In this document: positions 34,066 to 35,556 of the stretch, one piece after another
Layout of the letters: every line of letters starts with the position of its first letter
Position numbering within the stretch: the first letter of the stretch is position 1
Assembly: GCA_027489335.1 (NCBI GenBank)
Contig: JAIXZX010000005.1
Location: forward strand, 87,125-151,124
Direction: 5' to 3'
Length of the DNA stretch: 64,000 nucleotides
DNA from: Caulobacteraceae bacterium
GTDB taxonomy: Bacteria > Pseudomonadota > Alphaproteobacteria > Caulobacterales > Caulobacteraceae
The notes under the pieces: generated by a model
What the model was told of the DNA's origin: nothing
Databases searched by the model: none
What the model saw: only the letters and a program-made list of their open reading frames with translations
Made by a program: the position numbers and the translations under genes

Positions 34066-34458
34066 TCAGCCTGGCGGACCGCCGGCGCCCGGTCCGCAAC
34101 CCAGCCGGCATTGGCCCCAGGCCTGAGCGCACTCGTCCGAGCCGTCGCCGGCCAGGCAGAAGTAATAGGTCTGGGCGCAGGACATCCGGCAGGCCTGGGC
34201 GTCCGGGGGAATGGGGCTCGACATCACCAGCGAACCTGTAAGGGGCCTCAGGCCAAGGCTGAGGGGCGCGGAGCCCTCGGCCGCCTCCGGGGCGTCGCCG
34301 CCGTCTTCGGGGCCGTCCAGGAAGGCTCCAGCCCCGCGCAGGCCAAGGGCTGTGGCGCCCGGCCGCTGATCCAGGGACAGTCGTCCGTCCGTCTGCGCCG
34401 CCGCAGGGGCGGACAGGCCGAGAAGGACCGTCAGGAGAAGGGCCAGGGCTGAACGCAT
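34066..34458 (-). CDS. Secreted protein with C-terminal six-cysteine domain (130 aa)
   Basis: Signal peptide MRSALALLLTVLLGLSAPAAA; CX3CX6CX8CX6CX3C motif; start corrected to ATG 34458. Confidence 0.75.
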   Translation of the reverse strand: MRSALALLLTVLLGLSAPAAAQTDGRLSLDQRPGATALGLRGAGAFLDGPEDGGDAPEAAEGSAPLSLGLRPLTGSLVMSSPIPPDAQACRMSCAQTYYFCLAGDGSDECAQAWGQCRLGCGPGAGGPPG

Positions 34459-34481
34459 GCCGCAACCCTGAGCCTGAGCCG

Positions 34482-34498
34482 TTAAGACCCGATTAACC
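34482..34498. promoter_or_regulatory. Perfect CtrA binding site
   Basis: TTAA-GACCCGA-TTAACC, 24 nt upstream of the ATG at 34458. Confidence 0.75.
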
Positions 34499-34521
34499 AC
34501 GTTCGTCCCAGGGCCTGCGGA

Positions 34522-35521: not shown

Positions 35522-35556
35522 AAAACGAAAGAAGCGCGCGGGGGGCCGCGCGCTTC
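35522..35556 (-). terminator. Intrinsic terminator of the MCP gene
   Basis: GAAGCGCGCGG/CCGCGCGCTTC stem followed by TTTCGTTTT on the minus strand. Confidence 0.8.

Follow-up and report, generated by a model that had tools for sequence, protein, structure and literature searches.

The CHCH proteins with twin CX9C motifs (Cox17 and the CHCHD4 substrates) and the small Tim proteins with twin CX3C motifs are alpha-hairpins with nested 1-4/2-3 disulfides, and they are eukaryotic and Mia40-dependent. Copper-storage bundles of the Csp type have a helical core lined with cysteines, and CxxxC motifs are found in metal-binding helical bundles. The plant alpha-hairpinins carry the motif C1X3C2-X(4-20)-C3X3C4, with a six-cysteine form C-X3-C-X3-C-Xn-C-X3-C-X3-C; they are antimicrobial or protease inhibitors, and the cysteines are their only conserved residues (PMC11591084). 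On the regulatory side, promoters activated by CtrA through a full motif have the motif's 5' nucleotide near the −35 region (−39 for ctrA P2 and CCNA_00875 P2), repressing CtrA sites lie at about −14 or −10, over the −10 element, and a leaderless promoter with a CtrA motif is known, that of CCNA_01391 (Zhou 2015, PMC4287350). Here we describe a small gene in a 64,000-nucleotide stretch of a Caulobacteraceae genome (the window; GCA_027489335.1, contig JAIXZX010000005.1, positions 87,125 to 151,124) that encodes a six-cysteine protein with a predicted helical hairpin and is preceded by a CtrA-type box.

The coding sequence is on the minus strand at 34066-34458 of the window, stop codon included, and encodes a protein of 130 amino acids (P0001). 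It was assigned by reading the open reading frame (ORF) and by protein-level conservation in 27, 51, and about 370 homologs. The longest ORF at the locus begins at a GTG at 34500 (34066-34500, 144 amino acids) and passes through the putative CtrA box. All relatives in the alignments of 27 and 51 sequences share the ATG at 34458. This start gives the 130-residue protein beginning MRSALALLL (MRSALALLLTVLLGLSAPAAAQTDGRL), and it agrees with the ATG recorded for the Caulobacter crescentus ortholog. A GTG or ATG start further upstream, inside the box, was rejected because its frame relation to the ORF shifts with the box-to-ATG spacing of 37-40 nucleotides, and the signal peptide would be destroyed. 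That the ORF is not a gene at all was ruled out by its conservation and by ribosome profiling of the C. crescentus ortholog.

As the original prediction had described it from the DNA, the protein consists of a signal peptide, a Gly/Pro/acidic linker, and a six-cysteine core at 34096-34191 with the spacing 3-6-8-6-3. The Sec-type signal peptide, read from the sequence by eye, comprises residues 1-21 (MRSALALLLTVLLGLSAPAAA; 34396-34458, minus strand), with predicted cleavage before Q22. Its n-region is basic, its core is rich in Leu, and its A-x-A site is directly followed by QT; there is no lipobox cysteine. M1 and A21 are at least 90% conserved in the 51-sequence alignment, and AlphaFold places a helix at residues 2-15. 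From these features, Sec export and cleavage by signal peptidase I are predicted. Residues 22-86 (34201-34395, minus strand) form a disordered Ala/Pro/Gly/acidic linker, with a predicted local distance difference test score (pLDDT) below 50 over residues 44-80. Across 149 cluster representatives that are mutually at most 50% identical, the linkers contain on average 63% Pro, Ala, Gly, Ser, and Thr. The linker has a short motif, A-L-G-L-R-G-A, at 34327-34353 (residues 36-44), and R41 is at least 90% conserved among the 51 sequences. In the family, an (A/S/G)-L-R-(G/P) motif lies 15-30 residues past the signal peptide in a linker that is otherwise unalignable; LR[GP] is present in 108 of the 149 representatives and is not found in the C. 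vibrioides orthologs. This motif could be a processing or docking site. The helical hairpin domain (residues 87-121; 34096-34200, minus strand) was delimited by AlphaFold and conservation, and its six-cysteine core (residues 90-121) is CRMSCAQTYYFCLAGDGSDECAQAWGQCRLGC, that is, CRMSC-AQTYYF-C-LAGDGSDE-C-AQAWGQ-CRLGC. C90, C94, and C101 are on helix 1 and C110, C117, and C121 on helix 2. The protein ends in a short Gly/Pro tail (residues 122-130; 34069-34095, minus strand) that is variable in the alignments and has a pLDDT below 50 for residues 125-130.

Scans of the protein against Pfam and NCBIfam gave no match at E<=10. A word-indexed search found 27 relatives, and those few with a source name were hypothetical proteins from Phenylobacterium or Caulobacterales. 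Scanning species-representative genomes gave 54 loci, all in Caulobacteraceae, and a profile search of 1.84 billion cluster representatives gave 373 matches, 237 of them at E<=1e-10. Among the best 150 of these 373, nearly all are 92-174 amino acids long and no domain fusion was found; the lone match of 243 amino acids is a chimeric contig start (L011). In whole-genome searches, the gene was present in 156 of 401 Caulobacteraceae genomes, covering 19 of 27 genera, in 111 of the 127 genomes of the genus that contains C. vibrioides, and in none of 400 other alphaproteobacterial genomes from 308 genera. Thus, this is almost certainly a real exported family, previously unnamed and found only in Caulobacteraceae. 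The gene is single copy in its own genome, which is a Phenylobacterium. Two diverged copies of the hairpin gene occur in some genomes (G014, G038, G090, and the metagenome-assembled genome (MAG) Phenylobacterium E19_concoct.bin.37_sub, which holds both L017 and L026). The L017 and L026 copies both have a perfect box at 37 nucleotides, and they might be either true paralogs or binning mixtures.

The cysteine pattern proved to be conserved in the homologs. All six cysteines are invariant in the alignments of 27 and of 51 sequences and are kept in 148 of the 149 representatives. The spacing is 3-6-8-6-3 in 133 representatives, 3-6-7-6-3 in 12, and 3-6-9-6-3 in three, so the variation is confined to the length of the turn, and 146 of the 148 have no further cysteine outside the domain. 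The single exception, P0152, lacks C1 and C6 together and retains C2-C5 (..GRQRMACAKDYYFCLSQDDATECGPAWSACVVAS..). This paired loss is consistent with a C1-C6 pair, for one sequence in which a DNA-level artefact is possible. The domain also has conserved residues other than cysteine. In the 51-sequence alignment, R91, A95, Q96, Y98, Y99, and F100 are invariant together with C90, C94, C101, C110, C117, and C121, and W114 is at least 90% conserved. Among the 133 representatives with the canonical spacing, Y99 is invariant, R91 and W114 are each kept in 129, Y98 and F100 each in 125, and A95 in 115.

AlphaFold2 predicted a helix-turn-helix with the cysteines on facing sides of the helices, in line with the hairpin originally proposed. 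With the full-length alignment, the model comprised the signal-peptide helix, a disordered middle part, and helices at residues 87-104 and 109-120 with pLDDT 82-87. With a domain-only alignment of 53 sequences, the mean pLDDT was 80, the core blocks reached 86-91, and the helices were at 87-104 and 107-121. Since the cysteines are at i, i+4, and i+11 on helix 1 and at i, i+7, and i+11 on helix 2, they fall on one face of each helix. From this geometry, the hairpin probably has three nested disulfide rungs, 1-6, 2-5, and 3-4 (C90-C121, C94-C117, and C101-C110); by direct reading, the residue numbers of each proposed pair sum to 211. A contact between T/S97 and W114 would occupy the remaining fourth rung, which is non-covalent, as judged by direct reading and helix geometry. 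The genome encodes DsbB (107 bits), so oxidation in the periplasm is possible. Taken together, we regard a triple-disulfide hairpin as a likely structure for the domain. The invariant Y99 as well as A95, Q96, and L102 are on the face away from helix 2, which suggests a second, functional interface.

No known fold family could be joined to the domain. Foldseek against the PDB gave nothing significant for the full-length model (best E 6.9, with a few matches to respiratory-complex subunit chains) and no match for the domain-only model. When the PDB sequences were searched with the domain profile, the matches were all to nanobody frameworks and due to chance (RLSCA..YYC..WGQ; E 0.38 and 2.3). In the two nanobody chains (8k4q_B and 9qjx_F), the similarity covers domain residues 91-116, where RLSCA, YYFC, and WGQ mimic the framework signatures of immunoglobulin heavy-chain variable (VH) domains. 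These VH-like motifs are a trap for keyword and motif searches and not a sign of homology.

The comparison with plant alpha-hairpinins is one of shape. Both are antiparallel helix-loop-helix mini-domains with CX3C pairs and nested cross-links (predicted for the hairpin protein), and both are made with a signal peptide as part of a longer precursor. However, there is no sequence similarity, and the hairpin protein is bacterial and restricted to Caulobacteraceae. Its inner rung is spaced by X6 (i, i+4, i+11) and not by X3, and the 22 residues between its outer CX3C pairs, with two cysteines inside, exceed the 4-20 of the plant motif, so that it falls outside the motif as defined. Moreover, the hairpin is acidic rather than cationic and has invariant non-cysteine residues (R91, Y98, Y99, F100, and W114). 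The original description as hairpinin-like thus stands as a structural analogy and fails as a statement of ancestry: a family found only in Caulobacteraceae, with no sequence relatives elsewhere, does not appear to share descent with the alpha-hairpinins. The term knottin-like had to be dropped, since the predicted structure is all-helical and the mirror-symmetric ladder is nested and not knotted as in an inhibitor cystine knot. The hairpins of the mitochondrial intermembrane space are similar in being alpha-hairpins in an oxidizing compartment outside the cytoplasm with cysteines on facing helix sides, but they have two rungs instead of the proposed three, and spacings of X9 or X3 only instead of X3 and X6. 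No Pfam CHCH match at E<=10 and no significant Foldseek match was found.

Upstream of the gene is the perfect TTAA-N7-TTAACC site that had already been noted, at 34482-34496. It reads on the plus strand, opposite to the minus-strand gene, as TTAAGACCCGATTAACCAC (TTAA-GACCCGA-TTAACCAC) and on the gene strand as TTAATCGGGTCTTAACG (TTAA-TCGGGTC-TTAACG). With its plus-strand extension to TTAACCAC (34493-34500), the CtrA-type box, assigned from the sequence and its footprint, covers 34482-34500. There are 23 nucleotides between box and ATG, one fewer than first counted. TTAA-N7-TTAA is unique in the window, with 0.01 expected from shuffles, and occurs 10 times in perfect form in the 3.10-Mb, 68% GC genome, with about 1.3 expected from base composition. 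We took the upstream regions of all loci and compared 49 distinct orthologous promoters. The exact TTAA-N7-TTAA is present in 42 of the 49, and all 49 have it with at most one mismatch; the seven one-mismatch promoters include the Caulobacter forms TTAG-N7-TTAA and TTAA-N7-TTTA. In an alignment of the promoters anchored on the box, conservation is 92-100% at the eight half-site positions, and the N7 spacer is variable. An upstream flank, (C)(A/G)TGG, is 90-98% conserved and is preceded by an A-rich tract; on the reverse strand the whole reads TTAA-N7-TTAACCA(T/C). The extended CtrA half-site reportedly given by Laub et al. in 2002, TTAACCAT, matches this conserved reverse-strand flank, TTAACCA(T/C).

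The distance between the box and the start codon is also conserved. Counted from the box's first T, the ATG is 38 nucleotides away in 20 promoters, 39 in 14, 37 in 10, 40 in three, and 42 in two, and thus 37-40 in 47 of the 49. A hexamer NANNNT lies 26-31 nucleotides downstream of the first T of the box; here it is the −10-like CAGGGT at 34465-34470 (minus strand), −12 to −7 from the A of the ATG, a putative promoter element. With the promoters aligned on the box, A2 of this hexamer is kept in 78% and T6 in 71% of them; with the ATG as the anchor, the figures are 57% and 55%. Since its phase follows the box and not the ATG, the hexamer would act like a −10 element and not like a ribosome-binding site. 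A C directly precedes the ATG (−1) in 84% of the promoters. From the box-to-ATG distance, the phased hexamer, and the C at −1, we infer that transcription starts at or within 1-2 nucleotides of the A of the ATG (34458, minus strand), so that the mRNA would be leaderless. The box would then have its 5' nucleotide at about −38 of the predicted start, which fits an activating CtrA site at the −35 region. In the full-site promoters activated by CtrA in C. crescentus (ctrA P2 and CCNA_00875 P2), the 5' nucleotide of TTAA-N7-TTAA is likewise about 38-39 nucleotides before the inferred start; they share predivisional expression, and CCNA_01391 is a precedent for a leaderless transcript (PMC4287350). 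As far as sequence can tell, the promoter of the hairpin gene matches this architecture on every point, and a leaderless promoter activated by CtrA is in our judgment a probable reading.

Exact-sequence look-ups tied the family to ACL94279.1 of C. vibrioides NA1000, which is CCNA_00814 (CC_0775), the C. crescentus ortholog. CCNA_00814 (877757-878080, minus strand) is annotated as a hypothetical protein of 107 amino acids. It has the same architecture and the 3-6-8-6-3 cysteine pattern, lacks the LRG motif, and is about 29% identical over 48 residues of the domain (alignment A3). Its promoter has ATGGTTAATCGCCCCTTTACC, followed by GCTAGGGT close to the ATG. The expectation that the ORF is expressed was borne out for this ortholog by ribosome profiling and by a cell-cycle-regulated mRNA. 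CCNA_00814 is flagged as 'ORF mapped by ribosome profiling' and is in the list of neither neighboring operon (Schrader 2014, PMC4117421, supplement). In RNA-seq of synchronized cells, it was cell-cycle regulated, with a baySeq likelihood of 0.888 and a 10-fold change (Fang 2013, PMC3829707). Replicate coverage was 0/0/0 in both swarmer and stalked cells, then 2/4 in early predivisional cells, 3/2/3 in predivisional cells, and 1/1/1 in late predivisional cells, with means of 0, 0, 3, 2.7, and 1 (PMC3829707). This timing is that of CtrA full-site promoters. The gene is non-essential with a persistence index of 1, and its module in the weighted gene co-expression network analysis (WGCNA) also contains two genes for methyl-accepting chemotaxis proteins (MCP), flbA, flbY, hfsA, and hfsD (PMC3829707). 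The predicted regulon tables of Brilli 2010 hold no entry for CCNA_00814/CC_0775, and a literature search found neither name in the main text of the papers searched.

We propose the following explanation. The small protein would be exported by the Sec pathway and its signal peptide removed, and a disordered Pro/Ala-rich stalk would then bear a C-terminal alpha-helical hairpin of 32-35 residues. In the oxidizing periplasm, the hairpin would be locked by three parallel disulfide rungs together with the non-covalent T/S97-W114 rung, and its invariant outer stripe (R91, A95, Q96, Y98, Y99, and L102) would most likely dock onto a conserved envelope partner or ligand. Transcription would start at or next to the ATG to give a leaderless mRNA. 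Since a full CtrA site would occupy the −35 region of the promoter, the protein would be made when phosphorylated CtrA (CtrA~P) is high, in predivisional cells, alongside flagellar, chemotaxis, pilus, and holdfast genes. We favor the combined statement, a Sec-exported Caulobacteraceae protein with a triple-disulfide hairpin under a CtrA-activated leaderless promoter, with reasonable confidence. Overall, the interpretation in the original prediction was supported, with the roles it suggested (adhesin, inhibitor, or signal) standing as guesses.

The genes around the hairpin gene are metabolic or regulatory. A gene similar to short-chain dehydrogenase/reductases (SDR) and enoyl reductases ends 63 nucleotides upstream, and a TetR regulator gene is 140 nucleotides downstream, followed by a zinc-type quinone oxidoreductase (QOR) gene. 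An MCP gene and then a strong terminator are found farther upstream. This intrinsic terminator after the MCP gene (35531-35556, minus strand) has an 11-bp GC stem and a T tract. Apart from a twister-sister match at E about 1, the only Rfam match was a sub-threshold one to FsrA, which is nothing but this terminator hairpin (26 bits, with 80 needed). The gene order SDR-X-TetR-QOR, all on one strand, is widely conserved, with the SDR gene upstream at 38 of 58 loci, the TetR gene downstream at 52, and the QOR gene downstream at 46. In Caulobacter, the hairpin gene is instead flanked by an RPE65 dioxygenase gene and an FMO gene, with TetR 2 kb downstream. A functional operon with the neighbors was rejected, since the order is equally explained by vertical inheritance and the immediate neighbors differ in Caulobacter. 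The synteny was thus read as vertical inheritance, and the neighbors give no clue to the function. Zhou et al. describe internal promoters with independent timing, and the box looks like one of these.

Several points weigh against the combined explanation. Unlike the CtrA-activated full-site promoters, the C. crescentus ortholog has a degenerate second half-site (TTAA-N7-TTTA) and no entry in the published CtrA-motif lists, as far as these could be accessed; the accessible part of the supplement tables of Zhou 2015, from 5' rapid amplification of cDNA ends, holds neither a transcription start site nor a CtrA-motif entry for CCNA_00814. The peak coverage of CCNA_00814 is 3x, under the 5x that the authors take as clearly above background (PMC3829707). 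About five of the 54 loci have no box (L024, L027, L046, and two with unclear starts). The hexamers CAGGGT and GAGGAT also look like Shine-Dalgarno sequences at normal spacing, so the mRNA might have a short leader. Finally, no terminator was found between the SDR gene, the hairpin gene, and the TetR gene, and nothing in the analysis points to what the hairpin binds. L024 and L027 themselves, both from Phenylobacterium MAGs, have a different upstream sequence that is conserved between the two, and their signal peptides contain a cysteine (..LATACLAD..). They may be lipoprotein-like variants with different regulation.

In a first alternative, the box represses the gene or binds another factor. 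The gene would then have a short leader with an AGG-rich ribosome-binding site and a start about 15-25 nucleotides upstream of the ATG, the site would lie over −10/+1, and CtrA would turn off the gene or stop transcripts running in from the SDR gene. GAGGAT and CAGGGT, 6-7 nucleotides before the ATG, do resemble Shine-Dalgarno sequences; read-through from the SDR gene is possible because no terminator separates it from the hairpin gene; and CtrA sites over the −10 do repress (PMC4287350). However, A2 and T6 of the hexamer are phased with the box and not with the ATG, and the variants CAGCCT, CAGTCT, CATCAT, and TAGGCT, which are no Shine-Dalgarno sequences, retain both positions. There is no −35/−10-like pair upstream in register, and the total spacing from box to ATG is fixed within +/−1.5 nucleotides, which a leadered mRNA would not need. 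The ortholog is off in stalked cells, where CtrA is absent, and on when CtrA returns, as expected for activation, but it is also off in swarmer cells although CtrA is present there. The published full-site promoters are likewise off in swarmer cells, which has been attributed to SciP (Zhou 2015, PMC4287350). Thus, we consider a repressing or unrelated box unlikely and keep the activating CtrA site as the preferred reading of the promoter.

The second alternative concerns the protein. The linker might be a pro-region that is cut at or near the LRG motif, so that the free hairpin is released as a signal or as an antimicrobial of the bacteriocin or alpha-hairpinin kind. The layout would suit such a precursor, with a signal peptide, a disordered pro-like region that has LR[GP] in most representatives, and a compact Cys-rich C-terminal module, and antimicrobial or protease-inhibiting members are known among the plant alpha-hairpinins, whose fold type is the same (PMC11591084). 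However, no linked processing protease, ABC exporter, or immunity gene was found, and the conserved neighbors are metabolic or regulatory. By direct reading the hairpin is net acidic (two Arg and three Asp/Glu), unlike cationic antimicrobial peptides. Moreover, the gene is single copy and vertically inherited in the fixed SDR-X-TetR-QOR block, whereas bacteriocin loci are usually mobile or variable. A released peptide is therefore quite improbable, and we retain the hairpin on a stalk.

The six cysteines might also be metal ligands, with the hairpin, perhaps as a dimeric four-helix bundle, acting in the periplasm like Csp to bind Cu(I), Zn, or another soft metal; the cysteines on one face of each helix, the CxxxC motifs known from metal-binding bundles, and the conserved outer stripe as a possible dimer interface would agree with this. 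We regard it as very unlikely, since no Pfam match at E<=10 was found (DUF326/Csp included) and only two helices are predicted, the protein is a predicted Sec rather than Tat substrate in a genome with DsbB, the mirror spacing would bring the cysteines into pairwise contact inside one hairpin, P0152 has lost C1 and C6 jointly, no His or Met ligand is conserved, and no metal-homeostasis gene is nearby, the neighbors being the SDR, TetR, and quinone oxidoreductase genes.

With the disulfide-locked hairpin preferred, a more speculative function can be considered. The protein might be a new extracytoplasmic recognition module, a triple-stapled alpha-hairpin with an aromatic face on a flexible stalk that is sent to the envelope only in the predivisional cell. 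Its target there could be a polar structure under construction at this stage, for example the holdfast or another polysaccharide containing N-acetylglucosamine, the apparatus of the pilus or flagellum, or a protease or hydrolase of the periplasm whose activity it would time or inhibit. We give this idea a small chance only. If true, CtrA timing in Caulobacteraceae would be coupled through this protein to the morphogenesis of the envelope or the poles.

Through the analysis, what was an anonymous hypothetical protein (CC_0775/CCNA_00814 and its relatives) becomes a defined family, which has a clear architecture, a fold that can be tested, and a regulatory prediction backed by a phylogenetic footprint. 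Should this be confirmed, the gene would be a conserved, lineage-specific, exported addition to the CtrA regulon, many of whose targets have no function, and its promoter would be a natural leaderless promoter activated by CtrA with a geometry fixed across a bacterial family. The design of a disulfide-stapled alpha-hairpin, as in plant defense peptides and proteins of the mitochondrial intermembrane space, would then have arisen independently in the bacterial periplasm. Being small, highly conserved, and probably very stable, the 32-residue domain lends itself to structural study, and since the gene is non-essential in C. crescentus, the genetics are straightforward. For work on the Caulobacter cell cycle and envelope, it is a candidate that can easily be tested.

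The genome also encodes the CtrA equivalog, at C5:210059-210751 (NF045991, 410.9 bits with a cut-off of 350). The gene was located with a CtrA query sequence and then confirmed by the NF045991 profile. The region upstream of it (C5:209800-210058) has clustered TTAA elements, ATTAACCGGTCTTAAATTAAC and GGATTAACGAAT, reminiscent by analogy of the autoregulated ctrA P1/P2 region of C. crescentus. The other nine perfect TTAA-N7-TTAA sites of the genome are at C2:214133, C4:65670, C5:10087, C5:123144, C6:161920, C6:191985, C7:159334, C7:314728, and C8:18805. One box is between a divergent pair that consists of a weak FliO-like match (21.7 bits, just under the cut-off) and an ORF that looks FlgB-like by eye and has no Pfam match. 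Among the further neighbors of the boxes are EipA (PF06577), a peptidase of the LysM-M23 type, an HWE histidine kinase, a GDT1 transporter, and two small proteins of 110 and 466 amino acids without a Pfam match. The class II genes of the flagellum belong to the classical targets of CtrA, and eipA has been reported as a CtrA target in Brucella. For this Phenylobacterium, the ten perfect sites make up a shortlist from which a minimal regulon of CtrA full sites could be drawn.

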